Shown here one piece after another: positions 46,215-64,000 of a stretch of DNA of 64,000 nucleotides. Below the pieces are notes generated by a model. That model did no database searches and was not told where the DNA came from. It was given only the letters and a program-made list of their open reading frames with translations. This DNA comes from Candidatus Omnitrophota bacterium. Its GTDB lineage: Bacteria > Omnitrophota > Omnitrophia > Omnitrophales > Aquincolibacteriaceae. Position 1 is the first letter of the stretch. Each line of letters begins with the position of its first letter. Location: contig JAUYMS010000027.1 in the NCBI GenBank assembly GCA_030698625.1, positions 39,781-103,780 of the forward strand, in the 5' to 3' direction. The position numbers and the translations under genes are program-made.

Positions 46215-47000
46215 CTAAAGCCTCCCATCGAGACGAAGCCATTTGGATTCTTCATACGGCGGCAGATCTTGCGATCCGATCACGTCGACATCCTTGATGC
46301 GTGTCACGTCGAAATCCAGGGAAGCCCGGTCATAGACACCGATAATCTCTGACCGGTGCACCACGAAAAGATCCGAAATGCGGGTTCCATCATCAAGAAC
46401 GGCGGTAATCAAGTGCCCTTCGCGCAGCGTTGGCGGAATGCCCTGTAGTTTTTCGCACAGCGAGCTCGGAAGACTTCGCTCGGATTTCTTTACAAAAATA
46501 CTTCGGAAGATCGGTTTCGTGTTTGCTTGGCGCTCGAGTGCCGCCTTAAAGATCTCGTCGGTTTTCCGGTACATCCAAACCAAAAGAGGCATGAGCGACA
46601 CCAGCCATGTCGCCAAGACTGCCTTTACCCAGGCGGGCTCGAACCCTCCCCCCTCACGCACGGCAATGCGGTCACGATAGTAGAAGCTCCAGGCCAAACA
46701 ACTTGCGATAAGAACTCCGACAAAGTAATTCATCGATACTTGCCAGAGGGCGGCGGCCTTCTCTTGGTCGTCATTGAAGCGTTTCCAAATCCGTTCCTTC
46801 TTACGCATGAAGGGAATCAAAAAGAGGAACCAGCTTCCAAATACCGCGAGGCACCAGGTGAGTTCGAGTTCGTTCTTCTCAATACGGCCGAAGACCGACC
46901 CCAAAAGAAGAGTCCAGAAAATGGCGGATACTGCGAAGGCACCGGCGAAGGAGAGAATCCATTTGAGCCAGAAAGTAAAACCGAAGGACTCGTGAGCCAT
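46215..47000 (-). CDS. Hypothetical membrane protein (4 TM plus a cytoplasmic C-terminal domain)
   Basis: Long ORF with consistent codon usage. Its stop abuts the start of the PNPOx-like gene. Confidence 0.45.
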   Translation of the reverse strand: MAHESFGFTFWLKWILSFAGAFAVSAIFWTLLLGSVFGRIEKNELELTWCLAVFGSWFLFLIPFMRKKERIWKRFNDDQEKAAALWQVSMNYFVGVLIASCLAWSFYYRDRIAVREGGGFEPAWVKAVLATWLVSLMPLLVWMYRKTDEIFKAALERQANTKPIFRSIFVKKSERSLPSSLCEKLQGIPPTLREGHLITAVLDDGTRISDLFVVHRSEIIGVYDRASLDFDVTRIKDVDVIGSQDLPPYEESKWLRLDGRL

Positions 47001-47001
47001 A

Positions 47002-47469
47002 TTAGAATCCCTTATCGTACTTATGGCCCTCCACTTCCATGTATTTTTTATGGGCCTCCTGGGCTTGGGGGAAAGGCATCTTCTTTAGGGTGTGTGCGGC
47101 ATAGAAACGCGTCATTGAGTCGGGCGCCTTTGTCGCCACAATCAGCGGACGTAGGGCCTTTTCTCCATAGACCTGCAGAGAACTCATGGCGCGGTAACGA
47201 ACCGTCTTGGACTCATCGGCCAGGCCTTCAATAAGGATCGGAATAGCAACGTCGGGTTTTGTCGTCCTTCGCCCCAACTCAGCATAGGCCATAGCACGTT
47301 CACGCATGTCAGTGTTATCAGTATCATCAATGATTTCTTCGTATGTGGTCTCATCGCCATAGGGAGAGCGCGAGCAACCGATAAGCGGAACTAACGCGAC
47401 GGCAAGAAAAAGGAGGGTGGTGTATTGCCGGTGAACAGCTCGTCTGTGCGGAGAAAATTTTGATAACAT
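47002..47469 (-). CDS. HEAT-repeat lipoprotein
   Basis: Start at internal ATG 47469, preceded by an AGAGAGG-type RBS. Lipobox LIGCS; the remainder resembles PBS-lyase HEAT repeats. Confidence 0.45.
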   Translation of the reverse strand: MLSKFSPHRRAVHRQYTTLLFLAVALVPLIGCSRSPYGDETTYEEIIDDTDNTDMRERAMAYAELGRRTTKPDVAIPILIEGLADESKTVRYRAMSSLQVYGEKALRPLIVATKAPDSMTRFYAAHTLKKMPFPQAQEAHKKYMEVEGHKYDKGF

Positions 47470-47492
47470 AGGTAGTAACCTCTCTTGCTGCG

Positions 47493-47909
47493 TTAGGTCA
47501 TGTGATAGAGCATCGCGTAAACCAGGACCCCCGTGACCGAGACATAAAGCCAAATCGGGAAGGTTATTCTAGCAATTCTTACGTGCTTTTCAAACTGGCC
47601 TTTTATCCCCCACCACATGGTCAGAAGTACCATCGGTACTATGGCCAAAGCCAGAACGGAGTGAGAAATCAAGAGCGTAAAGTAAACAACACGGCTCCAC
47701 CCTTGTCCTGCAAAGCCTGTCGACCCATGATAATAATGATAAAAGAGATAAGAAACCAGAAAAATCGAAGACATTAAAAAAGCCCCGACCATACACAGGA
47801 CATGGGCTTTCATTGCATTCTGCCGGATAAAGACATACCCCAAAATGAGGAGGAAGGCACTGGCGACATTCAGCGCCGCATTCATGGCAGGCCATCTAAG
47901 AAATTCCAC
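47493..47909 (-). CDS. DUF420-family membrane protein (often associated with cytochrome oxidase/heme A genes)
   Basis: 138 aa with 4 TM helices; N-terminal MNAALNVASAFLLILGYVFIRQ is typical of DUF420. Confidence 0.55.
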   Translation of the reverse strand: MEFLRWPAMNAALNVASAFLLILGYVFIRQNAMKAHVLCMVGAFLMSSIFLVSYLFYHYYHGSTGFAGQGWSRVVYFTLLISHSVLALAIVPMVLLTMWWGIKGQFEKHVRIARITFPIWLYVSVTGVLVYAMLYHMT

Positions 47910-47920
47910 GCTAAAACCCT

Positions 47921-48721
47921 CTACCTGACATCCTCGGCCCTGCCCCGGGAGGCTACCCAGGCCGCAAAAACCATTAGAGCAATTCCAAAAACTACGGTCA
48001 CGATCACGCAGAGCCCTAACGGGGGCGCCGCTGCGGTTTCGTCATAAAGCGATGTTCGCAGTGCAGCCAATCCGTAACGCAGGGGGTTCAGCTTCATGAC
48101 TATCTGAATCCATGCGGGGGAACCTTCAGGCGGGAAAAGAGCCCCTGAGAGCAGCCATAACGGAATGAGTAACAAGTTCATAACAGCGTGAAATCCCTGA
48201 ATGGAGTGCAGGCGCCAAGCAATGACGAATCCAAGCGCGGTCAATGCCACTGAATTCAAGAATAGAACGGCAAGAACTAACAGCCATCCCGAAAGATCCT
48301 GATGAATTCCCATAAGCGGAGCAAACAACAGGAACAGGATGCCTTGCGAACAGGCCAGAGTTGCTCCTCCCAGAATCTTTCCCGTAACCAGCCCCAGGCG
48401 CGAGACCGGCGCCACAAGCACGGATTGCAGAAAACCCTCGCGCCGGTCCTGAATAAGGGAAATAGTCGAAAATATCGCCGTAAACAAAAGTATCAGAAAA
48501 AGAGTCCCCGGATAAAAATACTGCAGGTAATCGCCTCCGGAACTGCCCGCAAAAGAAGACCCGACACCGGAGCCGATGAGCAGCCAGAAGACCAGGGGCG
48601 ATCCGAGCGCGCCCACGACGCGACTCGGCTGGCGATAAAACCGTACGATTTCACGGCTCCAAAGTGAATAAATCGGCAGCACCTTCGAGATCACGATTCC
48701 TGCTCCCCGCCACCGCTCCAA
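47921..48721 (-). CDS. ABC-2 type transporter permease
   Basis: 266 aa with 6 TM helices and ABC-2 family topology. Confidence 0.65.
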   Translation of the reverse strand: MERWRGAGIVISKVLPIYSLWSREIVRFYRQPSRVVGALGSPLVFWLLIGSGVGSSFAGSSGGDYLQYFYPGTLFLILLFTAIFSTISLIQDRREGFLQSVLVAPVSRLGLVTGKILGGATLACSQGILFLLFAPLMGIHQDLSGWLLVLAVLFLNSVALTALGFVIAWRLHSIQGFHAVMNLLLIPLWLLSGALFPPEGSPAWIQIVMKLNPLRYGLAALRTSLYDETAAAPPLGLCVIVTVVFGIALMVFAAWVASRGRAEDVR

Positions 48722-49665
48722 AAGCGCTGGCCCGTTTTATGAAGATAAACGTCTTCTAAGGTTGGCCGGCGAAATGTGACGGCTTGAATAACTCCGGGAA
48801 ACGTCTCCACCAGTTTGGCAACAAAACCGGCGGCGTGCTCATGTTCCATCTGAAGGCTTCCTTTCAAAACCACGCACTTGATTCCAAAAGTCTCTTCGAT
48901 TTTGTGCGCCAGCTGTTCCTCAGAATTTGTCTGAATTTCTAAAACATCGGCACCTATCTCTCCCTTTAAGAGATCCGGCGCGCCCAAGCAAACAAGCTCT
49001 CCGTCACTCAGTATCGCAATCCGGTCGCAGTTCTCAGATTCATCCGTCATATGCGTGGTCACCATGACTGTCACCTTCTCTTGGTCCCGCAATGCGCGCA
49101 GATATTTCCATAAATCAACCCGCGCTCCGGGATCCAGGCCCGTGGAAGGTTCATCCAAAAGAAGGAGTTTCGGGCCATGCAGTAAGCCCTTCGCAATCTC
49201 CACGCGCCTTTTCAAACCACCCGAAAGTTTTCCCACAAGATCACGCGCCCGGTCACTGACCCCAAGCTCTTCCAATAACTCGTGACACCTTTTCTTTAGG
49301 GCATTGCCTCCGAGCCCATAAAGATAGCCCTGGTATCGTAAATTTTCAAAAACAGTCAATTTGTCATCAAGGCTTGGGGACTGGAAGACCACGCCGATCT
49401 GGCGGCGCACGTCGTTGGCCGACTGTGCCAAGGCGAAACCGCCGACACGAATTTCACCGGACGTCGGGCGAAAGAGAGTCGACAATATTCCGAATAGCGT
49501 CGACTTTCCGGACCCATTCGGCCCGAGCAATCCAAAAATCTCGCCGCAAGCCACTTCAAAGCTCACGCCCCGAAGTGCTTCGCGAGTGCCATAACTGTGC
49601 CGAAGCGCCTTGATGGTGATCAGAGTTTGAGTAGCCATTGCTTGCAGTTCTTCCACGTTAGGCAT
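48691..49665 (-). CDS. ABC transporter ATP-binding protein
   Basis: Walker A GPNGSGKST, signature LSGGLKRRVEIA, Walker B LLLLDEPSTGLD. Confidence 0.85.
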   Translation of the reverse strand: MPNVEELQAMATQTLITIKALRHSYGTREALRGVSFEVACGEIFGLLGPNGSGKSTLFGILSTLFRPTSGEIRVGGFALAQSANDVRRQIGVVFQSPSLDDKLTVFENLRYQGYLYGLGGNALKKRCHELLEELGVSDRARDLVGKLSGGLKRRVEIAKGLLHGPKLLLLDEPSTGLDPGARVDLWKYLRALRDQEKVTVMVTTHMTDESENCDRIAILSDGELVCLGAPDLLKGEIGADVLEIQTNSEEQLAHKIEETFGIKCVVLKGSLQMEHEHAAGFVAKLVETFPGVIQAVTFRRPTLEDVYLHKTGQRFWSGGGEQES

Positions 49666-50567
49666 TAGATGATCTTATCGATAACCATAAAGGAAAATAA
49701 GAGAACAATATAGATAAGCGAGGCACGGAACAAAACCGGAGCACTCTCGTTCAGAGTCGACAGACTGGCTGTATTCAACGCCAGATAAGCCATACCGATG
49801 AGAAGCGCGCCAATAAAATAAAAAGAGCCCGTGAGCCCGACGACTGTCGGCAGAAGGCTCGCGAACAACAGGGCGAGGGAATAAAAAAACATGCGCCGTC
49901 CGAGACCCGGCCCGTTTAATTCGCTTTCGGAGAGAACTAAAAAGCCGGCAACTTGATACTCATCACGATATCTCCAGGCGATCGCCAAAAAGTGCGGGAT
50001 CTGCCACAGATACATGATCGCAAAAAGGGTCCACGCACCCGAAGACAAAGACCCCGTGCTCGCTGACCACCCTATAAGCGGCGGTAAAGCGCCCGAAACG
50101 GCTCCGGCCAGAATGCAAAGCGACGTCTTGCGTTTCAACGGAGTATACGCGAAAAGATAAGTCGCAACCGTCAAGGCAGCGACGGAGGCGGCGATAAGAT
50201 TGATTCTGAGCAACAAATAGGCAAGACCTGCCATGGTCAAGAAAGTGCCCCAGACAAACCCCGCAAAAGCCGAAATCCGGCCTGCCGGAATCGGGCGCCC
50301 GGCTGTGCGCGGCATGCGGCCGTCGGCCTGGCGCTCCATCCACTGGTTCAGCGCCAATGATCCCGCACCGACTAAACCCGTCGCCAAGAGTGTGTGCAGC
50401 AACAACACCATGTCCATCGGTAACGCTGAAGCAAGAAAAAAGCCCACCCCCGTCGTTAGTAAAACGAAAAACACAATCGACGGCTTTGCCAATTGCCACA
50501 AGGCCCGTATGATTTCCCGCTTTCCTATATTGGAAGTTGCCTTCGTTTGAGGCGCCGACATGCTCAC
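49665..50567 (-). CDS. ctaB: Protoheme IX farnesyltransferase (heme O synthase)
   Basis: UbiA-family polytopic protein with heme O synthase conserved regions. 1-bp overlap with the ABC ATPase gene and 4-bp overlap with ctaA. Confidence 0.8.
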   Translation of the reverse strand: MSMSAPQTKATSNIGKREIIRALWQLAKPSIVFFVLLTTGVGFFLASALPMDMVLLLHTLLATGLVGAGSLALNQWMERQADGRMPRTAGRPIPAGRISAFAGFVWGTFLTMAGLAYLLLRINLIAASVAALTVATYLFAYTPLKRKTSLCILAGAVSGALPPLIGWSASTGSLSSGAWTLFAIMYLWQIPHFLAIAWRYRDEYQVAGFLVLSESELNGPGLGRRMFFYSLALLFASLLPTVVGLTGSFYFIGALLIGMAYLALNTASLSTLNESAPVLFRASLIYIVLLFSFMVIDKII

Positions 50568-51451
50568 TTTCTGAAACCTGCCCTCTCCTGATCGAATGAA
50601 ATCTTTAGATTCAGTAAAACACTCAGCCCCAGTATTAGTGCTCCGGTCGATTGATGCGCCACGGTGAAAAAAACTTCTGATTTGGGCGGGCTGTAACCTG
50701 CTTCCAGGACTTGCGTGAAAATAAAGGCCCCGAATCCTAGGAAGATTTGAACTAACGTCAGTAAGCCGAGGATCACCGCAAGCCGCTTAAAGGACGCTTC
50801 GTCCTCGGAAAAATTGGAGCTTCGAAGAACGACGAACAAAACGTGAATCAAAACCAAAAAAGCAACGATGACGTGCGGAATTATACCATAACCGGTATGA
50901 CGAACTGTAGCGCCTAGTACAAGCTGAAGGTAGACCCACGAGCTTGTCAGGAGCATTAGCCGGCGAAACGACACTTGTTGAGCCTGCCGTGCAAGGGAGA
51001 CTTCTGCCTGGAATGGGCAAAGAAAGAAGGCTAGAGCAATCACAAGACAGAAGAATGTCTGGGCTAAAACCGCATGCGCAATTGAGACCGGCGGAGGCAG
51101 AAGGGTGACCACGGTGAGGCCTCCGAGAAGCGCTTGGATAACAACCGCCGCAAGCGCGATCAAAGCCATTTTTTTAAGGCGCTTACGCGGCTCCCAGATC
51201 TGTATCGAAACCGCCAGGGCAAGCGTCAACAGGCCCACGGTTCCGGCAATCATTCGGTGCCCGTGTTCCCAGAAGACGTTACCGACCATGGGCGGGAACC
51301 ACTGCCCGTAAGAAAGCGGCCAATCGGGCACCGCAAGGCCGGCGTCATGACTCGTGACCAAACCCCCTGCGACCAGCAGCGCGAGCGTACACCCGGCTAA
51401 GATAAGCGAAAAATAATACAATCCCCTGGAACGTTTCGTCATGATAGACAT
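50564..51451 (-). CDS. ctaA: Heme A synthase (COX15/CtaA)
   Basis: LVAGGLVTSHDAGLAVPDWPLSYGQWFPPM and HGHRMIAG, the His-containing hallmark of CtaA. Confidence 0.75.
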   Translation of the reverse strand: MSIMTKRSRGLYYFSLILAGCTLALLVAGGLVTSHDAGLAVPDWPLSYGQWFPPMVGNVFWEHGHRMIAGTVGLLTLALAVSIQIWEPRKRLKKMALIALAAVVIQALLGGLTVVTLLPPPVSIAHAVLAQTFFCLVIALAFFLCPFQAEVSLARQAQQVSFRRLMLLTSSWVYLQLVLGATVRHTGYGIIPHVIVAFLVLIHVLFVVLRSSNFSEDEASFKRLAVILGLLTLVQIFLGFGAFIFTQVLEAGYSPPKSEVFFTVAHQSTGALILGLSVLLNLKISFDQERAGFRK

Positions 51452-52739: not shown

Positions 52740-54071
52740 ATGAGATCGCCTTGGTGTTTAGCTAGTTTCGCAAGTCTTCTACTCCTTTCTATTCCAAAAA
52801 TCGCATGGGCGGCGGAGACCCCGGAGGTCGATTCGGGAATCACTGCTTGGATGCTTACGTCAACCGCTCTCGTGCTCTTAATGATACCGGGCCTTGCGTT
52901 GTTTTACGGGGGGCTCGTGCGGACGAAAAACGTCCTCGGTACAATGATGCACAGTTTTGGTGCGATGGCCGTCATCGGTGTTCTGTGGGTCGTTTGCGGT
53001 TACGCCCTGAGCTTCGGACCCAGCGTCCTCGGCGGATGGATCGGTTGGAGCAACGACTTACTTTTTCTTAAGGGAATCGACGATACGATTATGGACGCCG
53101 GTATTCCTGAGTACGTATTCGCCATGTTTCAGGGGAAGTTCGCCATCATCACGCCAGCTTTGATCGCGGGCGCGTTCGCCGAACGCGTTCGGTTTCGCGG
53201 ATACTGCGTTTTCATCGCATTGTGGTCCGTACTCGTCTATGCTCCCCTCTGTCATTGGGTCTGGGCTGAGGATGGGTTTCTTTTCAACATGGGTGCCAAC
53301 GGTGCGATTGACTTCGCCGGCGGAACCGTCGTTCACATTTCTGCGGGAATAGCCGCACTAGCCGTCATCAGCGTTATTGGATCGCGCCGCGGTTATCCCA
53401 AAACGGCAATGTCGCCTAACAATAACGTCCTCACACTTCTCGGAGCCGGCTTGCTCTGGGTTGGCTGGTTCGGATTTAATGCCGGCAGCTCCGTCTCAAG
53501 CGGTTTGGATACTGCGCGCGCTCTAACTGTAACCCAAGTTGCGGCAGCTTCAGGCGCCCTAGCGTGGATCGTCATCGAGGGCATAAAGCACCATAAAGCC
53601 ACGAGCCTTGGCATTGCCAGTGGTATTTTGGCCGGCCTCGTTGCGATAACGCCGGCGGCCGGAGTCGTACAGCCGTGCGGGGCTATCGCACTGGGTTTGG
53701 GGGCGTCCTTGATATGCTACCTCGCGATCGGCTTAAAAAATAAACTCGGTTACGATGATAGCCTCGACGTATTCGGCATTCATGGAGTAGCCGGGATCTT
53801 CGGCGCGATTTTTCTTACGTTCTTCATCCGTCCCAGCTGGATGGAAGAAGCTCGGGAACTCGCAGGAGGTTCTTGGACCGTCATGAACCAGCTCGGAGTT
53901 CAAGCCACTGCAGTTGCCATTACGATAGCCTACACCGCCATCGTCACCCTTATCCTTACCCTTCTTGTCGAAAAAACAGTCGGTTTTCGTGCATCGCAGA
54001 GGGATGAGATCACCGGCTTGGATGGCAGTTTACATGGTGAGCAGGGATACGGTCTCTTGAACCTGAACTAA
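52740..54071 (+). CDS. amtB: Ammonium transporter
   Basis: Signal peptide plus 11 TM helices and Amt signature regions (GAFAERVRF, FGFNAGS, twin-His context); 443 aa. Confidence 0.9.
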   Translation: MRSPWCLASFASLLLLSIPKIAWAAETPEVDSGITAWMLTSTALVLLMIPGLALFYGGLVRTKNVLGTMMHSFGAMAVIGVLWVVCGYALSFGPSVLGGWIGWSNDLLFLKGIDDTIMDAGIPEYVFAMFQGKFAIITPALIAGAFAERVRFRGYCVFIALWSVLVYAPLCHWVWAEDGFLFNMGANGAIDFAGGTVVHISAGIAALAVISVIGSRRGYPKTAMSPNNNVLTLLGAGLLWVGWFGFNAGSSVSSGLDTARALTVTQVAAASGALAWIVIEGIKHHKATSLGIASGILAGLVAITPAAGVVQPCGAIALGLGASLICYLAIGLKNKLGYDDSLDVFGIHGVAGIFGAIFLTFFIRPSWMEEARELAGGSWTVMNQLGVQATAVAITIAYTAIVTLILTLLVEKTVGFRASQRDEITGLDGSLHGEQGYGLLNLN

Positions 54072-54090
54072 TTGAGCGCGGAGAAAAATC

Positions 54091-54432
54091 ATGAAATTAC
54101 TTACGATTATTATTCAACCCGATAAACTCGACGAAGTACGTCAATCGCTTTTCGATGCGGGCATTACCCGCATCACGGTAAACCGCTGCACGGGTCACGG
54201 CAGACAGGAAAATGAGGAGCTCTACCGGGGCCAAGCCGTTACACCCAACCTGATCCCGAAAGTTAAGCTTGATATTGCTTGCAATGATGAGTTTGTGGAT
54301 ATCGCCATCGCAGCGGTCTTAAGCTCCGCCAAACATAACGGGGGGAAAATCGGCGACGGGAAAATATTCGTAACGCCTTTAGAAAAATGCATACGAATAC
54401 GGACCGGCGAATCCGGCGGAGCCGCGATCTAA
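54091..54432 (+). CDS. glnK: Nitrogen regulatory protein P-II
   Basis: 113 aa with T-loop ...RQENEELYRGQ containing Tyr51, and B-loop GDGKIFV. Confidence 0.85.
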   Translation: MKLLTIIIQPDKLDEVRQSLFDAGITRITVNRCTGHGRQENEELYRGQAVTPNLIPKVKLDIACNDEFVDIAIAAVLSSAKHNGGKIGDGKIFVTPLEKCIRIRTGESGGAAI

Positions 54433-54783: not shown

Positions 54784-54816
54784 AAAAACCCGCTCGTTCG
54801 TGAGCGGGTTTTTGCA
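54784..54816. terminator. Symmetric (bidirectional) Rho-independent terminator
   Basis: AAAAACCCGCTC-gttcgt-GAGCGGGTTTTT: a 10-bp GC-rich stem flanked by an A-run and a T-run, located 32 bp downstream of the minus-strand lipoprotein gene stop. Confidence 0.55.
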
Positions 54817-54847: not shown

Positions 54848-55330
54848 CTACCGGCCCAAATCCGCCGTTGTTTGCGCTTCGGTAAGCAATGGCGAGTTAA
54901 TATTAAATCCGTGAACTCGCCACTGATCGCCATCATAGAGCATCGTCACGAGCATGCGGCCCTCGTTATCTTTTGAGTAGATAACGTCAAATTTGACAAT
55001 CTTCAAACCGCGCCCCTCACCGGGCGCCACATCGTCAGTCACATCCGTACCCGCACTATGGTTGACATAATTCCCCACAACGGCCTGAGCCGTCTCAAGC
55101 AATTTTGTCGTCATCCCCGTTGTCTCGATCGCAGCATAGCCAGCCGAAACAAACTCATGTGCTGCCGCCGCATCACCGGGCGTCTCATACAACGCAGTGA
55201 TAAATCCGTCGGCAACAGCAAGCGCTTCCTCCGTCTGCCGCGCACCGGAAAATTCTCCGGCGTAATAAGCCCCGAAAACACCTGCGACGATCAATGCGAC
55301 AGAGATAATGATCTTCGGCTTCATGCCCAT
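54848..55330 (-). CDS. Small periplasmic/lipoprotein-like protein
   Basis: Start at internal ATG (55330) gives N-terminus MGMKPKIIISVALIVAGVFGAYYAG, a signal anchor. Sits downstream of the cupredoxin gene. Confidence 0.4.
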   Translation of the reverse strand: MGMKPKIIISVALIVAGVFGAYYAGEFSGARQTEEALAVADGFITALYETPGDAAAAHEFVSAGYAAIETTGMTTKLLETAQAVVGNYVNHSAGTDVTDDVAPGEGRGLKIVKFDVIYSKDNEGRMLVTMLYDGDQWRVHGFNINSPLLTEAQTTADLGR

Positions 55331-55334
55331 GGCG

Positions 55335-56117
55335 TTACCCCGTAAAAGTAAAACTGGCCGACTGCGGAGCAGCGTCATCGACTGTAACATTCATAGTCTG
55401 TGTTCCGTATTTTTCGTGCCAGGCTTCCAGTACATAAGAGCCTGCGGGCAAGTCCTTGATTTCAAAACTACCGTCACTGCCGGTAGTGCTGAAAAAAGGG
55501 TGAGAAACGACACCCACATAAGCATTCATCCAGGGGTGAACGTCACACTTAAACTTTACCATCACCTCGGCGCTATCAAATTTCCTTTTAACACGCATGC
55601 CCGGAATCGGCATTCCAAGATTAAACTCCTTGGAGTTCTTCGGCAGACCGTGAACATTGTGCAGAGTGGGGTCGCTGTTGATAATGTCAACCGGCTGACC
55701 TACCTGCACGCCGAAGACATGAGGCTTATATTGACACCCTTTTTGATCAAGGGTTACCGGAGTGCTGGGCGTATCAAAGGTCTGTCCCTCGAGTCCTTCC
55801 TTCACATAGACAAATACGTTCTGCAGAGCCCCTGCGTCGCCGACAACCACTTCTTCGCTCAAAACGGATTCACTATGTGCACCGGCACAGGTCGGATCGG
55901 CATCCATACTAATGACCGCCGCTTCCGGCGCGGCTCCATCAAATTTAACGGTCCCGGAAACCATCCCCGCATAAGAGGATGCGCTCCACACCGCAAGCAC
56001 AAATAGAGTCGTAAGAGTTACTTTGGCTATCTTCTTCATGGTATCCCTCCCAGGATTTAATAATTTCGAGAAATAGGGCGCTTGTAGCCTGTAACACTTT
56101 GACGATACTACAGGCAA
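55335..56117 (-). CDS. Cupredoxin-like (type-1 copper) protein with a C-terminal beta-sandwich domain
   Basis: Signal peptide. Candidate copper ligands are H in PTLHNVHG and C-x2-H-x2-M in KCDVHPWM (compare amicyanin CTPHPFM), followed by a carboxypeptidase-regulatory-like segment GSYVLEAWHEKYG. Confidence 0.45.
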   Translation of the reverse strand: MPVVSSKCYRLQAPYFSKLLNPGRDTMKKIAKVTLTTLFVLAVWSASSYAGMVSGTVKFDGAAPEAAVISMDADPTCAGAHSESVLSEEVVVGDAGALQNVFVYVKEGLEGQTFDTPSTPVTLDQKGCQYKPHVFGVQVGQPVDIINSDPTLHNVHGLPKNSKEFNLGMPIPGMRVKRKFDSAEVMVKFKCDVHPWMNAYVGVVSHPFFSTTGSDGSFEIKDLPAGSYVLEAWHEKYGTQTMNVTVDDAAPQSASFTFTG

Positions 56118-56213
56118 ATTTATTTAATTCCAGTTAACTTTTTATAAGCGCAGGCTCACGCCACCGTAACTTGTTCTTCAGAAAGAAGTTAGGGGGTTGA
56201 CGTTCTGTAAACT

Positions 56214-59030
56214 TTAGCCGGCTTGCGGCACTTGGGGCTGAGCAGCGCCGTGGGCTTCTTCGGCATTAAAGAGCCATAGATAATCGCGAATCGCTTCAGA
56301 TTGACGAAGTGCGTCACCCCCGAGAATCTCCGGCATGGGCGATTGCCCATCATAGAAGAAGGTCGGCATCATTGTTCCCTCCTGCAGGGCTTGAGGGTCC
56401 ATCAACCACTCGACAACCCAGTCGGGTCGCAGACGGGACTTTGTCATTACCAGATCGGGCGCCAGAAATGATGCTGACAGCCCGGGCTCAGGATTTGACT
56501 TATGGCACTTGATACACTGGAAAGCTTTGAAAAGCTTTTTCCCGGCTTCTATGTTTTCGGCTGTTGGTTTCGGCGTATCGTCCTTATACGAAATCGGTAC
56601 CTCCGAAAGATTTTCAAAATACCGTACGATATGCGTGAGCGACTCTTCGTCAAATTCGAAAGTCGGCATCCGGTAACTCAGCCATGGGCGGATCGTTACC
56701 GGCTTCTCGAGAAAGTCATAAAGCCAGCCGCCGTCAACTTTCTTGCCTTCGCCGGTAAGAAGCGGCGGGGCGTTACCGGCATCGTCAAACACTTTTCGCA
56801 CTTTGCCTTCTTGGCCGTCGAGAGTGTGACATCCCTGGCAATTAAATTTTGCGACTAAATACCGCCCTCGCTCGATCTCCTGCTCCCTGAGGTCAAGCTG
56901 TTTCGACATCTCCAGCGGAATATCCTCCTTCTGCAAACTCAAGAGAAAGGTCGTCAGTCGCTCCGCTTGGTCGTCATTAAAACCGAAATCCGGCATACGA
57001 AGTTTCTCGTGATAAACCTTTTCTTTGCCGCGATCGAAAATCCTCGGCTCCTTAAGCTTCTGATAAAACCAGGCCTGGCGTGTGTGGTCCAGGTGAATGA
57101 GCCCAAAATCAAGTTTGTGGACGTCCTTTGACCCTTCGTCGGTCAACTCAGTGCCGATCGGTTTTGTATCCTCAAAACCGTGGATCGTATGACACCCGAA
57201 ACAACCCTGGTGGACAATGGTCTTTTCGCCTATAAATTCCAAGCGCTCTTGGGCACTCATGGCATTGAGTTTAGCCTGCGCATCATCGTAGCGCAGCCGG
57301 CCCTTGAGAAACATCATTGCCAGTCCATCTACCACTTCAGACTTAACAATCGGCAAACGGATACTCTCGAATTTTTCGTTACGATCTTCCAGAAGATAGG
57401 CCGTGATGTGCGCGGCCTCTTCATTACTCAACCGCATGTTGGGCATGCGGGTTTCGGACGAGTAATGTTTCGGATCTTTGAGCCAGGCATAGAGCCATTC
57501 AGGAGTCACTTTACTCCCCAACCCCGTCAGCTCCGGGCCGAAGTTGTTGGCATCAACTCCGGCTGCCGTGTGGCACCCAAGACAACCTACTTCCTTGACG
57601 AGGGCTTCTCCGGCTTCCGGGTTCCCCTTAGTCGGCAAGCTCCCCAGCGCGATCGGATCGGAATTTTTCATCAGGTATGCTGCGATACCTGCGATGGAGG
57701 CGTCGCTCTTCTCCGCACTTTTCACATCCGATGTGTTTTCCAGGTGAAAAATGCGCGGCATCTTAGTAGAAGCCCTGAATTCTTTCGGATTCATCAGCCA
57801 GCGGATAATCCAGTCCGGCTCAAGCTTACTCTGTACATGCTCCAGACTCGGGCCTACTTTCCACTGCTTCTCAAATCCCTCAATCTTGTGGCAGCCCGCA
57901 CAACCATAAGTACGAGCCAAACGCCTTCCCTCGGCAAGCTTCGGGGCTTGAGGGACATCGACGACTCCGCCGTGGCACTTTGTGCAGGATGCCTCCGTGT
58001 AACTCAAAGGCAACATCTTGCTAATCGCATGCGTCATCTCGCGCCATCCGTAGTCCTTCTTCCACTCTGCGGCCTGCTCATCGGATTGAGGGGTGTGCGC
58101 CGCTGTTGTAAAAGAAACCGACTGTCCGCTCCCTCCGTGACACGTCGTACACCCGAAAGTCTCTGCCGGATGCGGCGAGTTCGCGGAAAGAAACAACTCC
58201 AAACGCGGATGAGTCTGAAAGGGTTTCGGGGCATCCTCAAATCCGGTCTGATCGATACCCAAGTGACAGGTCGTGCATCGATCCACCTTGTTCGATTTCT
58301 TAAAAAAGTAATCGTCATAAAGGTTTTCCAAGACAATCTGCTGGATTTGCAGAGTGGGCTTCATGAAATCAAGCATGGGCGCATTCAAAATGGCCGTTGC
58401 CACGTTCGGGGATAATTTCTTAACTGTGGACTCCAGGCGAGTAATCGATTCGGTCAGCTGCTGTATCTGGCGCGTTAGTTCACGCGCCTTCTGTGTAATC
58501 TCGTTTATGCTCTCCTTTCTGGCGTCGTCCTCTGCCTGCAACCCTTCCAGGTCTCTCTTCAAAGAGTCGATGACCGGGGCGCGTTCTTCCATGCGCTTAG
58601 CAAATTCGGCGGCTTGCTCATCTTCATGATGCAGACGATGCTCCTCGAGGAAATAACGGTCTGAGTCCTGAAACTGCTTTTCATTCTGATACCGCATGGT
58701 CGTCTGAGTAATCTTGATGGCCAGGGCAGCCGTTTCCTTTTCAAGCTCACGAACCTTGCTCTTCTGCTCGTTGGCAGACATGTGCGCTTCTACCAGCTGC
58801 GCTTCAAGCGCCGCTAGCTTTTTCTGGTCCACGGCCTTTCGAGCCTTCTGAAGTTCTCCCTCGGCCTTTTCCCGACTGTAAGTGACGAACTCCTTCTGCC
58901 AGTGCTTCCACTCACGCGTGCTGTCCTCGAGCACCATGGCTACCAGTGAGATCAACAGAACGAGGGAGGAAATGGCAAACCAGACCGTTGTTTTCTTAAG
59001 ATCATAGAGACTAGGGGATTTTCCGGGCAT
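56214..59030 (-). CDS. Membrane-anchored octaheme c-type cytochrome with a ~200-aa coiled-coil linker
   Basis: Eight CxxCH motifs: CTTCH, CTTCH, CTKCH, CAGCH, CLGCH, CFGCH, CQGCH, CIKCH. About five repeated class-I-like units of the form W..L.DP...(x)MP.F. N-terminal TM plus heptad-rich region. Confidence 0.85.
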   Translation of the reverse strand: MPGKSPSLYDLKKTTVWFAISSLVLLISLVAMVLEDSTREWKHWQKEFVTYSREKAEGELQKARKAVDQKKLAALEAQLVEAHMSANEQKSKVRELEKETAALAIKITQTTMRYQNEKQFQDSDRYFLEEHRLHHEDEQAAEFAKRMEERAPVIDSLKRDLEGLQAEDDARKESINEITQKARELTRQIQQLTESITRLESTVKKLSPNVATAILNAPMLDFMKPTLQIQQIVLENLYDDYFFKKSNKVDRCTTCHLGIDQTGFEDAPKPFQTHPRLELFLSANSPHPAETFGCTTCHGGSGQSVSFTTAAHTPQSDEQAAEWKKDYGWREMTHAISKMLPLSYTEASCTKCHGGVVDVPQAPKLAEGRRLARTYGCAGCHKIEGFEKQWKVGPSLEHVQSKLEPDWIIRWLMNPKEFRASTKMPRIFHLENTSDVKSAEKSDASIAGIAAYLMKNSDPIALGSLPTKGNPEAGEALVKEVGCLGCHTAAGVDANNFGPELTGLGSKVTPEWLYAWLKDPKHYSSETRMPNMRLSNEEAAHITAYLLEDRNEKFESIRLPIVKSEVVDGLAMMFLKGRLRYDDAQAKLNAMSAQERLEFIGEKTIVHQGCFGCHTIHGFEDTKPIGTELTDEGSKDVHKLDFGLIHLDHTRQAWFYQKLKEPRIFDRGKEKVYHEKLRMPDFGFNDDQAERLTTFLLSLQKEDIPLEMSKQLDLREQEIERGRYLVAKFNCQGCHTLDGQEGKVRKVFDDAGNAPPLLTGEGKKVDGGWLYDFLEKPVTIRPWLSYRMPTFEFDEESLTHIVRYFENLSEVPISYKDDTPKPTAENIEAGKKLFKAFQCIKCHKSNPEPGLSASFLAPDLVMTKSRLRPDWVVEWLMDPQALQEGTMMPTFFYDGQSPMPEILGGDALRQSEAIRDYLWLFNAEEAHGAAQPQVPQAG

Positions 59031-59038
59031 AGTTTGAG

Positions 59039-60121
59039 CTAGATGTTAAAGAAAAATTCCGGGATGGCCACGATGTACTTGAGATTGAATCCCCAACGCA
59101 AAAACATCTTGATTGGCAACGCCAACATCATCAGCATCAGAATGATAAAGACTCCATAGCGTTCCGGCCCAACCTTTTCGTAAATTTTCTTGCACACAGT
59201 CTTCGCCATAAGGACCGGGGGCACCGCGAAATAAAAAAGGACAATGAGAATCCCCGGGGCCTCTCGCAGAAACCAGTTCGATGGGAGCCCCTGACTGAGC
59301 CACTTGATGAATATGATTTCAGACAGGTTGATGTTTACAAGCGGCACGACCTTATGAACATCCCATACTTCGAAAGGCCCAAAGAAATTCCAGTTCGGGC
59401 CTCTGAGGAATGTCCCGACAATGATCAGGAGAATCCAGAGAATCCAGAAGCCGAACATGAAGAACATGATCGGCATCTTGCGCGCGGCGTAGGAATAGAA
59501 GCCCGAGGTCTTGGTATCGCGATCGATATACGGAAGGGCGCATAGCCCCAGAATAATGAAGGTGGGCAGGAGCACGCCGGCAATCCACGGATCAAAGTAG
59601 ACAAGCATTTCCTGAAGGCCCAGAAAGTACCAGGGGGCTTTGGAAGGATTCGGTGAAATCGTGGGATTAGCCGGCTCTTCGAGCGGGGCCTTTAAGAAAA
59701 TCGACCACAGGACCAGGCCGATCGAGCAGAAAAGCGCCACCACGAACTCGATATAAATGAGATAGGGAAAAACCATGACCTTTTCATCGGCTTCGGTCTT
59801 TTCCCACGGCGGCTCGCCTTTGGCAATTCTCTCATCATTGTCGACGGCTTTTTTCATCGCAAACCACGTGAAGTAGCCGAAGATAAACAGCATAGCAACG
59901 ATCGGCACGTTGTCCGGCTTAGTCACAATTCCCCGAAAATGTTCGTCGGTAAGGCCAAAAGCAAAAAAAGCGAGAAACAAAACGGCGAAAACCGCAGACA
60001 CCCACCTCGTAGTGCACTGCTTGGGGAAGGTCATAAAAACGGCAAAAACGAGGATGGAACCCACAAAGATGCTCACCGGCGATGCAAAGGCGTCAATTGC
60101 CGCCTTGATTGCCTCACCCAT
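59039..60121 (-). CDS. Cytochrome b C-terminal half / subunit-IV-like protein with extra TM helices
   Basis: PNPSKAPWYFLGLQEMLVYF matches the PetD/cyt-b C-terminal PEWY region. 360 aa with additional N- and C-terminal helices. Confidence 0.7.
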   Translation of the reverse strand: MGEAIKAAIDAFASPVSIFVGSILVFAVFMTFPKQCTTRWVSAVFAVLFLAFFAFGLTDEHFRGIVTKPDNVPIVAMLFIFGYFTWFAMKKAVDNDERIAKGEPPWEKTEADEKVMVFPYLIYIEFVVALFCSIGLVLWSIFLKAPLEEPANPTISPNPSKAPWYFLGLQEMLVYFDPWIAGVLLPTFIILGLCALPYIDRDTKTSGFYSYAARKMPIMFFMFGFWILWILLIIVGTFLRGPNWNFFGPFEVWDVHKVVPLVNINLSEIIFIKWLSQGLPSNWFLREAPGILIVLFYFAVPPVLMAKTVCKKIYEKVGPERYGVFIILMLMMLALPIKMFLRWGFNLKYIVAIPEFFFNI

Positions 60122-60142
60122 TACGATAATTCCCCGGATCTC

Positions 60143-60994
60143 TTACAACGGAGCACTGATTCCCCCGTCTTTTCGAATGCGCCAAAAATGAACAGCCATT
60201 AAGATCACTGCTGCCACGGGAATGGCAACACAGTGCAAAATATAAAACCTCAGAAGCGCGGCTTCCCCCACAAAACGACCGCCGAGAAGAGCAAAACGGA
60301 CATCACTACCGGAATGAATTAATTGGATATCACCCAGGGCCAAAAGCGCAGCACCCGGCCCCTCGTGCCCCAGAAAAGGTGTGGCGCGCGCCATGTTGGT
60401 ACCGACGGTAATGGCCCAAATCGCCAATTGGTCCCACGGAAGCAAATATCCCGTAAAACTCAAGAGCAAGGTCAAGACCAGCAGAATGACACCGATCACC
60501 CAGTTGAATTCCCTGGGCGGCTTGTAGGAGCCGGTCATGAAAACGCGAAACATATGTAACCATACCGTGATTATCATGGCGTGGGCCCCCCAGCGGTGGA
60601 GTTCCCGCATGATTCCGAACGGCACATGCTCTCTTAACGCAATGATGTCGTTATACGCGTATTCAACCGTCGGCCGGTAATAGAACATCAACATAATGCC
60701 GCTGACGACCAAGGTCAGGAAAATAAAGAACGTCAGCCCGCCCGCACACCACGTAAATCCGAACCGGGCCCCTGATTTGCGAACTCTTACGGGATGGAGG
60801 TGGAAAAAGACATTCGTCAAAACCGTCATAGCCCGGTCTTTTTCATCATCGGAATACCCATGACGAAACATGGATTTTCCTACCTGAGTCTTTAAACGAA
60901 AATCCTTCCAGCTGAATTTCGGGAGTTTGATCCGCGAAAGAAAATTCAGCGATGATTTCTTTTTCGGTTCTTCTTTGTCCTGATTCTCACCCAT
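60143..60994 (-). CDS. Cytochrome b (b6-type N-terminal half, heme-binding four-helix core)
   Basis: [26 protein letters not shown]...[17 protein letters not shown] carries the conserved cyt b/b6 His ligands; 283 aa. Confidence 0.8.
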
Positions 60995-61016
60995 GCTCTA
61001 AAAACTCCCTTACGGA

Positions 61017-61574
61017 TTACAGATACAAGAAACTATCGGGTTGATTCCATTCGCCCTTCTCTTGCTGAAACTTCCTACTCTTATCGACAATGATATTGCC
61101 GTCCTCGCCGAGACGAATCGCATAACGCTCAAGCGGACGCGGGGCAGGACCTTCAAAATTAATCCCGCTTGCGTAAAAGCCGCTGCCATGACAAGGGCAC
61201 TTGAATTTCTGCTCGCTCTCCATCCAGCTCGGAGTACATCCGAGGTGCGTACAAACCGTTGAAAGCGCATACATGCCCTCGGGTTCTCGCACTAGCCAAA
61301 CTGCGTATTTTTCCTTCCAGCGCAAATCGACTTTTCCGATGTCATAATCGTCGGGCTTGCCCGCGTTAAAAATGGGGTTTGGTTCGAAAAGGACATTGGG
61401 GAACATGAATCTCAGGCAGGTCGAAAGGGCCGCAAGCGTCGCCGCGGCAAAACCTGTCCAAGCAAACCCTAACCAGGTAAAAAGAAAATGACGGCGGGCT
61501 ACAGAGACCGGGGGCTGGGTCTTTGGCGCAGACGCGGGCGGCGAACTTGGCGGCTTAGGTTGCTCTTCACTCAT
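61017..61574 (-). CDS. Rieske [2Fe-2S] protein (Tat-exported)
   Basis: Twin-arginine RRHFL, then CTHLGC and CPCHGS boxes. Confidence 0.85.
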   Translation of the reverse strand: MSEEQPKPPSSPPASAPKTQPPVSVARRHFLFTWLGFAWTGFAAATLAALSTCLRFMFPNVLFEPNPIFNAGKPDDYDIGKVDLRWKEKYAVWLVREPEGMYALSTVCTHLGCTPSWMESEQKFKCPCHGSGFYASGINFEGPAPRPLERYAIRLGEDGNIIVDKSRKFQQEKGEWNQPDSFLYL

Positions 61575-61579
61575 TAAAT

Positions 61580-62446
61580 CTATTCCGTTTCTGCTGATGC
61601 CAGTGCTTCAAGTGCTACTTTACGTACCTTAAGGCTTATGTCTTCTGCTGCTATCTTCTTCAAGATCGGCAGAGACTCTTTATGGTTGAGCAACGCCAAT
61701 CCCTTCACGGCATTGATCATGATCTGCTCAATTTTGCCCTCCTCGAGCCCTTCGTAATGCGCCAGAGTTTCACGATCCAACATCTTAACCATGACATCAT
61801 AGCCGGCGTCATTACCCAGTCTCGCGAGACTGAGCGCCGCATTCCACCGAATGTCACGAGCCTCGTGATTTAAAAGCCGGCTTAACGGCTGCACACCCCG
61901 TGAGTCTCCCAAAACACCTAGGACGTATATCGCCATATTCCGAATATCTTCTTCATCCCGATCCAGATACGGCAGTATGTCCGGAACAGCTTCCCTCACC
62001 TGCTTCTGGCCCAATGCCCAAAGCGAGTAAAGCTCCACTTCAGCCTCGGTTTCAACTCTAAGCGTCGCGCGAAGCGCTTCGGTTGCCTCCGGCTCATCAA
62101 AACGAGTTAGGGCAACCGCCATATAAGAACGCGTCTTGGCGTCATACTCCTCGTGACCATTCAAAATATGAATGATCTCGTTCATCACGCCGGACGAACG
62201 AATCAGGCCACGGCCTTGGTTGAGCTCATTTGAGAGCTCAAAAGCCTTTTGCCAACGCTTACTCGGCGCCCCCGTCTTTATCGCCGTAATAAGTGACTCG
62301 GGGGTCTCTGCTTCACGCGTAAGTAACACGACGGTACACAACAATACCGCCATCCCCACTGCGATCATCAGGGGAAAAATAAAGAGCCCAAAAAATAATT
62401 TCCTGCCGGAACTGCTTATGGGTTCGGAATTTATCACGTTTTCCAT
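61580..62446 (-). CDS. Membrane-anchored HEAT-repeat protein
   Basis: N-terminal TM, then PBS-lyase/HEAT-like repeats (LGDSRGVQPLSRLLNHEARDIRWNAALSLARLG). Confidence 0.5.
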   Translation of the reverse strand: MENVINSEPISSSGRKLFFGLFIFPLMIAVGMAVLLCTVVLLTREAETPESLITAIKTGAPSKRWQKAFELSNELNQGRGLIRSSGVMNEIIHILNGHEEYDAKTRSYMAVALTRFDEPEATEALRATLRVETEAEVELYSLWALGQKQVREAVPDILPYLDRDEEDIRNMAIYVLGVLGDSRGVQPLSRLLNHEARDIRWNAALSLARLGNDAGYDVMVKMLDRETLAHYEGLEEGKIEQIMINAVKGLALLNHKESLPILKKIAAEDISLKVRKVALEALASAETE

Positions 62447-62459
62447 GGCTTATCAATCG

Positions 62460-63992
62460 TCAATTGGCCGACCGTCTCCGAAACGCGTAAACCATCCATC
62501 CTAAGAGCGCTAGATCGACGGCAACTCCGCTCAAGACATACGTAAGACCGCCGCCGCCAAAACCATAACTATGAAGCCCGGCCCCCAAAACAAAGTTGAC
62601 CCCGTACCAAGCCATTAATATACCCAAAAAGGCAACGACCGACCCGACAGCAACACCGAAAGAGCTCAACCACCCGGCCATGCGGCCGTGCAGCACGGCC
62701 AGATACCCGAGTAATGCGATCAGCGCCCAGGTTTCTTTGGGGTCCCACCCCCAGAAACGGCCCCACGAATAATTTGCCCACACGCCACCGAGCACCGTGC
62801 CGCATGCAAGCAGAATAACCCCAATCTGCAAACTGCGGTAAAGATACTGAAAGAGCCGCTGCCTTGTCTGCGCGTTATCCGGACCAAACGCATACTGATA
62901 AACAATACCGTGCCCCAACCCCCATGCCAGCATAAAGGCCCCGTAACTGAGTGTGATGGTCAGGACGTGTACGGTCAACCACAGATTACTGCGAAGTACC
63001 GGCACAAGCGGCGACATAGCGGGGTTCAAGGCTACCGGAAACTTCTCTGCGAGTACTAATGCGAGCGCGGCAACAATCGCGGCCGTTAATCGAATATAGG
63101 GCGCCCGATAGACGGCAAACAAGATGACGGAGAAGAGGACGACGCCCCACGAAACCCATATCATGGATTCGTACATGTTGGTCACGGGAGGACGACCCGA
63201 AATCACAACCCGCAGATAAAAACCGTAGGCATGCGCGACAAACCCCGCGATGAAACACAGGAAGCCCAGGGCGCTGATCGCACGCTGCAATTTGCCCGGC
63301 TCGCCGCCGATAAGTAGAAGCGTCCACGCTATGAGAACACTAACCAGATATAGTTTCCAAGCCCAGTGAAAGGGTTGAAAGCGATTATACAGGATTTCCG
63401 TGCTGTTCACTTTCTCATCCAACATAACCGACGCCGATGAGAACAGAGAGCGCAGGACTTCACGCAAGCGCACCGTGAGTTCCAGCGGCGGCCCCTGCCC
63501 AGAATTTTCTTTAAAACTGTCCAGGATATCGCGAACCGTGATTTGATATTCCGTTAAGAGCTGCCCGGAATAATGGCTGGCCAGGTCACCGCGCCCCTGC
63601 TCCACGGCGAAAGCGGTGAGGGGAAACCAGCCCTTGCGGGGATCATCGGGCTGCGCGATCCAACCAGGTAGGGCTCCGTGGCCGATGCCGCGAAAGAAAG
63701 CAGCCTTCTCATAAAGCGCAACTCTCTTTTTTTCGACCTCCGAAAGTTCTTCTTTGAGTTCCTGTCGGTTAAAACTCTCCTGCACTTGATCGAGAAAGGG
63801 TTGGTGGCTGAGCAGGATTTCGGGGGTAATACGATTGCGGACCATCATGAGGGAAAACTCTTCCCGCAACCCTTTATGCGTGACGGGAATCATGGCCCGG
63901 CGGAACCATTTTTCGGGATCTGCCATCCATTGCCAAACTAGACTCGTCGGCGACTGCCCGTCATAAACGTGTTTACCCGTAACATACAGCAC
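62460..63992 (-). CDS. ccsA: Cytochrome c biogenesis heme lyase CcsA/ResC-type (possibly a CcsBA fusion continuing past the window end)
   Basis: WWD motif WGRFWGWDPKETWAL and conserved His residues in the C-terminal TM bundle. About 215 aa precede the first CcsA helix, and the listed Met at 63992 is 8 nt from the window edge. Confidence 0.7.
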   Translation of the reverse strand: MLYVTGKHVYDGQSPTSLVWQWMADPEKWFRRAMIPVTHKGLREEFSLMMVRNRITPEILLSHQPFLDQVQESFNRQELKEELSEVEKKRVALYEKAAFFRGIGHGALPGWIAQPDDPRKGWFPLTAFAVEQGRGDLASHYSGQLLTEYQITVRDILDSFKENSGQGPPLELTVRLREVLRSLFSSASVMLDEKVNSTEILYNRFQPFHWAWKLYLVSVLIAWTLLLIGGEPGKLQRAISALGFLCFIAGFVAHAYGFYLRVVISGRPPVTNMYESMIWVSWGVVLFSVILFAVYRAPYIRLTAAIVAALALVLAEKFPVALNPAMSPLVPVLRSNLWLTVHVLTITLSYGAFMLAWGLGHGIVYQYAFGPDNAQTRQRLFQYLYRSLQIGVILLACGTVLGGVWANYSWGRFWGWDPKETWALIALLGYLAVLHGRMAGWLSSFGVAVGSVVAFLGILMAWYGVNFVLGAGLHSYGFGGGGLTYVLSGVAVDLALLGWMVYAFRRRSAN

Positions 63993-64000
63993 CGCCTCGC

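Follow-up and report, generated by a model that had tools for sequence, protein, structure and literature searches.

Which partner takes up the electrons of a Rieske/cytochrome b complex whose operon encodes an eight-heme cytochrome c in the place of cytochrome f? The question is raised by a gene cluster at 54848-64000 on the minus strand of a 64-kb stretch of DNA from a Candidatus Omnitrophota metagenome-assembled genome (MAG), hereafter the window, in whose coordinates all positions are given. Previous work has described operons of this kind: Lucker et al. 2013 reported from Nitrospina, Kuenenia and Methylomirabilis an iron-sulfur (Fe-S) subunit, a cytochrome b split into b6 and subunit IV (SUIV), and an atypical octaheme cytochrome c (PMC3578206). 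Dibrova et al. 2017 described short cytochromes b with a CxGG motif in planctomycetes and other phyla, as subfamily G (PMC5600118), and Kao and Hunte 2014 defined an 'APWY clade' with a mid-to-high potential Rieske protein, in which no member had been characterised and for which they proposed reverse operation (PMC4122944). Our literature searches turned up no use of the term APWY in papers dated 2015 or later, and a survey of the Omnitrophota (Seymour et al. 2023) makes no mention of Rieske/cytochrome b or bc complexes (PMC10066038).

Here, we identify the subunits encoded by this operon, compare them with their relatives across many phyla, and propose that they probably form a quinol-oxidising, proton-motive complex of b6f architecture, in which the octaheme cytochrome c replaces cytochrome f and from which a secreted cupredoxin passes electrons to an aa3-type oxidase. 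An earlier note on this DNA, made from the sequence alone, had presented the complex as novel so long as its gene set was not already described. Since the operon type appears in Lucker et al. 2013, the core is of a known kind and the claim of novelty is reduced, although no such complex has been purified.

An operon of eight co-directional genes

The eight minus-strand open reading frames (ORFs) between 54848 and 64000 all point in the same direction and form a tightly packed operon, with gaps of 5-22 nucleotides (nt) between genes from CcsA to the octaheme gene. Families were assigned by Pfam and NCBIfam scans, the NCBIfam matches being judged by the model cut-offs. All eight ORFs lie where the earlier note had placed them, and each of its family calls is backed by the scans except that of a lipoprotein at the end of the operon. 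The features, with protein lengths in amino acids (aa), are as follows.

62460..64000 (listed ORF 62460-63992), minus strand: CcsA/ResC-type system II cytochrome c heme lyase subunit (PF01578, E 5e-29; WWD motif)
61580..62446, minus strand: HEAT/PBS-HEAT repeat protein with a single transmembrane (TM) helix, 288 aa (PF13646, E 2e-24)
61017..61574, minus strand: Rieske [2Fe-2S] protein, exported by twin-arginine translocation (Tat), 185 aa (PF00355; RRHFL, CTHLGC, CPCHGSGF)
60143..60994, minus strand: cytochrome b6-type four-helix cytochrome b, 283 aa (Cytochrome_B N-terminal half; CAGG)
59039..60121, minus strand: extended SUIV, 360 aa (PF00032 Cytochrom_B_C; APWY)
56214..59030, minus strand: membrane-anchored octaheme cytochrome c, 938 aa (8 CxxCH motifs)
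55335..56039, minus strand: predicted secreted type-1 (blue) copper cupredoxin in a CarboxypepD_reg-like beta-sandwich, 234 aa (invariant ligands; AlphaFold2 (AF2) model)
54848..55330, minus strand: small cysteine-free protein with a hydrophobic helix at its N-terminus (no Pfam family)
54784..54808, no strand assigned: intrinsic terminator hairpin CCCGCTC-ACGAAC-GAGCGGG followed by T5 (sequence reading)
47493..51451, minus strand: oxidase-biogenesis string of CtaA (heme A synthase), CtaB (heme O synthase), ABC ATPase, ABC-2 permease and DUF420 (gene calls and Pfam, same contig)

The membrane core resembles cytochrome b6f

The Rieske protein carries the predicted Tat signal RRHFL (61482-61496) and both cluster-binding boxes, CTHLGC (61236-61253) and CPCHGSGF (61176-61199), as the earlier note had read them, and the second box makes it a Rieske protein of the S-F second-sphere type. 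Its closest solved relative is Kustd1480 of Kuenenia stuttgartiensis (9rk3, E 3e-43), for which a midpoint potential of +335 mV has been measured (PMC12954380).

The next gene was correctly recognised as the N-terminal half of a cytochrome b, matching the corresponding Pfam family at 60143-60994. The protein aligns end to end with b6 chains, which are also its best PDB matches (E 3e-41), and its His133, His147, His254 and His269 align with the four heme ligands of b6. The sequence WCAGG aligns with the YC(I/L)GG of b6, whose cysteine binds heme c_n, and the window protein carries the same cysteine (CAGG), a predicted attachment site for that heme. Ahead of the b6 region lies an N-terminal extension with a conserved HLHP motif (His65-Leu-His-Pro, 60791-60802), found within NVFFHLHP. 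In Kuenenia the counterpart is His62 of Kustd1481, within NVFLHLHP, and an AlphaFold3 model of the Kuenenia complex proposed this residue as a ligand of an extra heme b.

The 360-aa protein that follows is a homologue of subunit IV with extra helices (about 8 hydrophobic segments), as had been noted, whereas the quinol-oxidation (Qo) motif that had been read as PEWY-type is APWY in the alignment to b6f SUIV, at 59627-59638 (residues 162-165). The first ~100 aa, comprising 3 TM helices, are extra relative to the Kuenenia-type SUIV.

Judged by these sequences, the Rieske/cytochrome b complex is non-canonical. Its cytochrome b is split over two genes and the c-type subunit carries eight CxxCH motifs rather than being a monoheme c1, which agrees with the earlier statement that this is not a classical bc1. 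The companion statement, that it is not a b6f either, stands for one half of the complex. Neither the ORF list nor the Pfam scan revealed a cytochrome f in the operon, an octaheme cytochrome c being in its place, but the membrane core, with its heme c_n cysteine and separate SUIV, is by sequence of the b6f type. With the b6f and plastocyanin of cyanobacteria and chloroplasts it shares a four-helix b6 bearing the c_n cysteine, a separate SUIV, a Rieske protein and a soluble protein with a predicted type-1 copper site. In contrast to b6f, it lacks cytochrome f and the small Pet subunits, has an octaheme cytochrome c instead, has APWY rather than PEWY, and has an SUIV of ~8 TM helices against three and a cupredoxin embedded in an extra beta-sandwich.

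A widespread family without the flavoprotein of anammox bacteria

At least 559 species genomes, spread over many phyla, contain the module of HEAT protein, Rieske, b6, SUIV and octaheme cytochrome c, in hosts that include Omnitrophota, Acidobacteriota, Latescibacterota, Marinimicrobia, Bdellovibrionota, MAGs labelled Planctomycetia, and others. Synteny was counted in the best 80 loci of these at least 559 confirmed genomes (one genome per species), of which 58 have enough upstream DNA. Loci carry L numbers; L003 is the same contig as the window (window coordinate = 69031 minus L003 coordinate). Rieske, cytochrome b and SUIV lie upstream of the octaheme gene in 58/58 loci, and APWY is present in 72 of 74 SUIV sequences. 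CxGG is found in 61 of 68 cytochrome b sequences; the seven frames without it all look like extraction artefacts, comprising fragments 25-185 residues long, reads that were partial or in the wrong frame, and one unresolved frame of 287 residues. Rieske proteins of the family are mostly of the S-F type (58, against 8 S-Y).

For comparison with Kuenenia we used L004, a locus of its type encoding a Rieske protein, a cytochrome b, a 566-aa NAD(P) oxidoreductase, a 277-aa SUIV and a 945-aa octaheme cytochrome c. BLASTP against L004 gave 47% identity over the full length of the Rieske protein, 58% over the full length of cytochrome b and 47% over residues 111-360 of SUIV. The octaheme proteins (945 and 938 aa) are collinear at 29-37% identity, with all eight heme motifs aligned. 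Shared features include the N-terminal TM helix and long helices of the octaheme protein, CxGG, APWY, the S-F Rieske type and the N-terminal HxHP. By these comparisons all four core subunits are orthologous to those of the Kuenenia complex Kustd1480-1485 (R/b-3).

The two loci differ in three respects. The window has no NAD(P) oxidoreductase (FAD/Fe-S), and a gap of just 21 nt separates cytochrome b from SUIV; its SUIV has three extra N-terminal TM helices (360 against 277 aa); and it has a HEAT gene upstream and a cupredoxin gene downstream, neither of which is present at L004. The NAD(P) oxidoreductase is absent from all 58 related loci, and tblastn gave no match to it in any of the 80. With a median SUIV length of 365 aa and about eight helices among the relatives, a form of ~365 aa being the norm in 74, and with no flavoprotein beside it, the short SUIV and flavoprotein of Kuenenia are the exception among these loci. 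The 277-aa SUIV of L004 (13354-14187) lacks the three N-terminal helices, a loss that accompanies the gain of the NAD(P) oxidoreductase. In the related loci, all of them without the NAD(P) oxidoreductase, HxHP precedes each CxGG that was found and is therefore a family-wide feature rather than an anammox speciality.

We examined how far the likeness reaches to the other groups named in the earlier note, which had compared the complex with those of anammox bacteria, nitrite oxidisers and metal reducers. The anammox comparison is borne out by the orthology with Kuenenia. The nitrite-oxidiser comparison holds for the published operon type: the operons of Nitrospina gracilis and Methylomirabilis oxyfera are described as having an Fe-S subunit, a split cytochrome b and an adjoining octaheme cytochrome c, in a description that does not mention an NAD(P) oxidoreductase, and differ in that the host here is an Omnitrophota MAG. 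For metal reducers, the score of the cytochrome b on the Geobacter ExtP model falls just below the cut-off (269 against 290 bits), and with ExtQ at 56 (cut-off 150) and ExtS at 50 (cut-off 100) also below theirs, we rejected membership in ExtOPQS. The APWY Qo motif, the S-F Rieske protein of mid-to-high potential type and the short cytochrome b with CxGG match the APWY clade and subfamily G, and these motifs, together with the orthology to a planctomycete member, place the window complex putatively in the APWY clade.

An octaheme cytochrome c in place of cytochrome f

The 938-aa protein contains exactly 8 CxxCH motifs, which take up all 16 of its cysteines, confirming its assignment as an octaheme cytochrome. 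Alignment with homologues, including that of Kuenenia, showed that all eight heme motifs, His274, His287, His312 and five M-P pairs are invariant. Together with an AF2 model in which a TM helix (residues 11-37) is followed by long helices (40-206), this gives a layout of a TM helix, a helical arm of ~170 aa, three hemes that are probably bis-His and five class-I-like domains with probable His/Met hemes. The model has a mean predicted local distance difference test (pLDDT) score of 72, falling below 50 in the triheme region. Foldseek searches of the PDB with this model returned non-significant coiled-coil matches only, and searching the PDB by sequence gave no solved homologue either. Scores were obtained for more than 850 homologues; among the 120 matches listed identity was 52-63% at lengths of ~930-960 aa. 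Pfam gave weak matches to MtrC/MtrF domain II/IV and to the c7/c3 families.

A secreted protein with a predicted blue-copper site

Directly downstream of the octaheme gene lies a protein listed as a 260-aa ORF, for which the gene call gives 234 aa from the matching start at MKKIAK (56039), with a cleavable-looking signal peptide. The earlier note had proposed a copper site from its C-x2-H-x2-M motif, naming the upstream histidine and the cupredoxin fold in advance as tests, and both are present. The ligands lie in TLHNVH (55650-55667) and CDVHPWM (55527-55547). His127, Cys165, His168 and Met171 are invariant in 39 homologues, and CxxHxxM is kept in 41 of 44 syntenic ones.

Pfam matched just a C-terminal part of CarboxypepD_reg (profile positions 29-81) and NCBIfam just amicyanin at 0.099. 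As neither yielded a cupredoxin domain, the fold had to be shown by modelling. The structure prediction that the earlier note had called for gave an AF2 model with a pLDDT of 91.6 and an amicyanin/plastocyanin-like fold. Foldseek matched it to amicyanin, plastocyanin, pseudoazurin and the purple cupredoxin of Nitrosopumilus (5fc9) at E about 1e-5 to 1e-6, the first three with a probability of 1.00 and target TM-scores of ~0.7. An N-terminal strand, GxVxGxVxFxGxxP, resembles the first strands missing from the CarboxypepD_reg match, which suggests that the cupredoxin is inserted in that beta-sandwich. We conclude that the assignment as a predicted type-1 (blue) copper cupredoxin, secreted, holds on the strength of the invariant ligands and this model. 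The cupredoxin/CarboxypepD_reg family comprises 7,740 cluster representatives at E <= 1e-10, and our literature searches found no paper on it or on its oxidase fusions.

The cupredoxin module is linked to aa3-type oxidases

In 24 of 72 loci the cupredoxin gene immediately follows the octaheme gene. Comparing its presence with that of COX1 or CtaA/B within 10 kb, we found 30 loci with both, 2 with the cupredoxin only, 2 with the oxidase genes only and 16 with neither (Fisher p = 4e-9). In the Latescibacterota locus L019 the order is octaheme, cupredoxin, COX2, COX1, COX3 and COX4, then CtaA, CtaB, ABC, ABC2 and SCO1, and in L001, L005 and many other phyla a string of CtaA, CtaB, ABC, ABC-2 and DUF420 directly follows the cupredoxin.

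The module is also found fused to oxidase subunits. In Omnitrophica bacterium GWA2_52_8 (L006, 12252-13658) COX2 bears at its N-terminus a second, paralogous cupredoxin module that shares 50% identity with the window protein, and the fusion keeps the copper ligands in the cupredoxin module and the CuA motif in the COX2 part. In other cluster representatives the module sits at the C-terminus of COX2, on prokaryotic COX4 or on PF06181; P0364, P0439 and P0438 are among the proteins that show the fusions to COX2, at either end, and to COX4. The COX2 fusions of opposite order and the COX4 fusions are independent of that in GWA2_52_8. Cytochrome oxidases of the caa3 type carry a fused cytochrome c domain, and the COX2 and COX4 fusions form the pattern that would be expected of an electron-entry module of the same kind. 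Electron-entry modules attached to aa3 oxidases include those of caa3 and AcoP of Acidithiobacillus, and the cupredoxin module, fused in relatives to either end of COX2, resembles the fused domain of caa3; unlike caa3, the window protein is free and secreted, with a predicted type-1 copper domain and not a heme domain. In cyanobacteria, plastocyanin also feeds an aa3 oxidase.

The fusions to PF06181 (Urate_ox_N), a membrane domain that in PuuD normally bears a cytochrome c domain, are found in P0468, P0470 and P0455 and suggest a role for the module with other membrane oxidoreductases as well.

Between the cupredoxin operon and CtaA, the window holds an ammonium transporter and a PII gene (52740-54432, plus strand), together with three small uncharacterised genes, a position at which relatives have COX2-COX1-COX3 or the two clusters joined directly. 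The ABC ATPase and ABC-2 permease pair (47921-49665, minus strand), whose best NCBIfam matches are DrrA/DrrB-type exporters under the cut-off, is kept between CtaB and SCO1/DUF420 in several phyla (L005, L016, L019, L022, L024, L049 and L079). A 261-aa protein (46215-47000, minus strand), for which neither Pfam nor NCBIfam has a family, is found again behind CtaB in L005, L006, L009-L011 and L013, and its neighbour in the window is a second, small HEAT-repeat protein (47002-47553, minus strand).

A model for electron flow from quinol to oxygen

The model that we favour is grounded in subunit identities, conserved cofactor ligands, the fold of the cupredoxin, and its ties to the oxidase through gene neighbourhoods and fusions. 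Quinol would be oxidised at the APWY-bearing Qo site. One electron would pass to the high-potential Rieske cluster, through the chain of eight hemes in the membrane-anchored cytochrome c and on to the secreted type-1 copper protein, which would deliver it to the CuA site of an aa3-type heme-copper oxidase. The other electron would cross the membrane through hemes bL, bH and c_n and reduce quinone in a Q cycle. At the head of the operon, ResB and CcsA would attach the eight c-hemes, and the nearby CtaA/CtaB/ABC/DUF420 genes would serve the oxidase. In this model we infer the direction of electron flow, the cupredoxin as physiological acceptor and the presence of the oxidase in this genome.

Several observations weigh against the model. 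A tblastn search with COX1-4 found none of them in the 64-kb window, which holds just the heme A and assembly string. The cupredoxin model contains no copper. Eight hemes exceed the need of a simple relay, and in 18 of 50 related loci no cupredoxin lies within 10 kb, which means that other partners can serve the complex. Finally, the published proposal for this clade, in which none is characterised, is that its complexes run in reverse (PMC4122944).

We weighed four other explanations. The cupredoxin could be an assembly factor or copper chaperone for the CuA/CuB centres of the oxidase, with the octaheme cytochrome feeding another partner or the oxidase directly. Its gene stands among the assembly genes CtaA, CtaB, SCO1 and DUF420 in many loci, and it tracks oxidase genes more closely than bc genes. 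We nevertheless consider this role unlikely, as its ligands form a complete and invariant type-1 site (His, Cys, His, Met), its closest folds are the electron carriers amicyanin, plastocyanin and pseudoazurin, and permanent fusion to COX2 or COX4 fits a caa3-like carrier domain and is not known from chaperones.

The same complex might instead run in reverse, moving electrons from a high-potential periplasmic donor to the quinone pool, as hypothesised for the APWY clade by Kao and Hunte 2014 (PMC4122944) and as in nitrite oxidisers, for which Lucker et al. 2013 invoke reverse electron transport in Nitrospina (PMC3578206). In contrast to those proposals, the gene neighbourhoods described here point forward to an oxidase: in many lineages of aerobic heterotrophs the cluster adjoins genes for aa3 oxidase and heme A, and no lithotrophic donor enzyme was seen beside it in the ORFs scanned, which lie outside 20381-41251. 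Reverse operation is therefore improbable in our view.

We give equally little credence to the octaheme cytochrome acting as a terminal reductase, or as the start of an extracellular or periplasmic conduit to metals, nitrogen oxides or, as in Geobacter ExtOPQS, selenite/tellurite, rather than serving mainly oxygen respiration. The weak MtrC/MtrF and c7/c3 matches, the closeness of the cytochrome b to the ExtP cut-off and the surplus of hemes speak for such a role. Against it, five of the eight hemes lie in class-I-like domains with invariant Met-Pro, probably with the His/Met ligation typical of high-potential carriers, the operon has no outer-membrane conduit genes, and the Ext scores are all under their cut-offs. 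Last, an electron-bifurcating, NAD(P)H-producing complex like that proposed for Kustd1480-1485 would fit the orthology of the four core subunits and the HLHP that retains the proposed ligand of the extra heme b, but it is extremely improbable, the absence of the flavoprotein gene, here as in 58/58 related loci, excluding it for this locus.

Accessory genes at either end of the operon

The operon begins with the gene that the earlier note had called a CcsA-type heme lyase. The call is sound, resting on PF01578 and the WWD motif WGRFWGWDPKE (62733-62765), and needs one correction, as the gene is cut by the end of the window. The frame stays open up to the window edge, and on the same contig (L003) the complete gene encodes 574 aa, which is presumably unusually long for the CcsA-type family, directly after a 595-aa ResB (PF05140). 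TIGR03144 scored 156 bits, under its cut-off of 187.6. With PF01578, the WWD motif and an adjoining ResB, the two proteins have the sequence features of a system II cytochrome c biogenesis pair. Among related loci, ResB/CcsA are upstream of the octaheme gene in 3 of 51. Residues 1-210 of the listed ORF, ahead of the membrane domain, are devoid of hydrophobic helices.

The HEAT-repeat membrane protein was likewise correctly described, with HEAT_2 and PBS-HEAT repeats behind one N-terminal TM helix (residues 23-41). Its gene is upstream of the Rieske gene in 53 of 58 related loci and is a conserved accessory gene of this complex family. Comparison with the PDB matched generic alphaRep/PBS-HEAT repeats only. 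The PBS-lyase-like repeats prompted us to consider the protein as the missing heme c_n lyase, which we keep as a low-probability reading. Counts of the charges flanking the TM helix point to N-in, C-out in 32 loci as against 11, an orientation that would place the repeats in the periplasm, on the wrong side for such a role, and the Kuenenia-type locus L004 has CxGG with no HEAT gene adjoining.

The last gene, by contrast, does not encode the lipoprotein that had been claimed, as the 180-aa protein has no cysteine and so cannot be one. Instead it has one N-terminal hydrophobic helix, at about residues 21-45. It belongs to no Pfam family, tblastn did not find it at any of the 80 related loci, and it is specific to this lineage. 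The terminator proposed behind it was recovered: on the minus strand, 54784-54808 form a G+C-rich hairpin that ends in T5. The stem was also recovered by a plus-strand scan, and with A5 on its other flank the hairpin can act in both directions. A terminator-like minus-strand site at 55498-55515, inside the cupredoxin gene, was taken as chance.

Other genes in the window

Elsewhere in the window, a sulfate-assimilation group at 41840-45431 (minus strand) comprises APS kinase, PAPS reductase and two pyridoxal-phosphate-dependent (cysteine-synthase-like) enzymes. A 799-aa protein at 6680-9079 (minus strand) has a weak match to TLC ATP/ADP transporters and MFS and a C-terminal HEAT match; ATP/ADP translocases have been listed as symbiosis-related genes in Omnitrophota (PMC10066038).

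Implications for the APWY clade and the Omnitrophota

The locus is a typical member of a known, widespread and never purified family, and the new part is the reading of a copper shuttle between complex III and complex IV. Extended to the family, it would make the module and its cupredoxin/beta-sandwich carrier a widespread and unrecognised aerobic chain, with blue copper replacing soluble cytochrome c between complex III and aa3 in Omnitrophota, Acidobacteriota, Latescibacterota, Marinimicrobia, Bdellovibrionota and others. We offer this extension tentatively, at somewhat less than even confidence. If it is true, APWY-clade complexes would run forward and not in reverse, the HEAT membrane protein could be a new subunit or a cofactor-insertion factor, and the HLHP histidine could bind an extra heme b family-wide, beyond the anammox bacteria. 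The anammox complexes with their NAD(P) oxidoreductase differ from the 58 related loci, all of which are without that subunit.

Gene neighbourhoods and the COX2/COX4 fusions name a candidate acceptor, the blue-copper protein, and a candidate end point, the aa3 oxidase, for a clade whose electron acceptor and direction of operation the literature had left open (PMC4122944, PMC12954380), and the question can now be tested in culturable relatives. For this Omnitrophota genome, the cluster points to quinol-dependent respiration.

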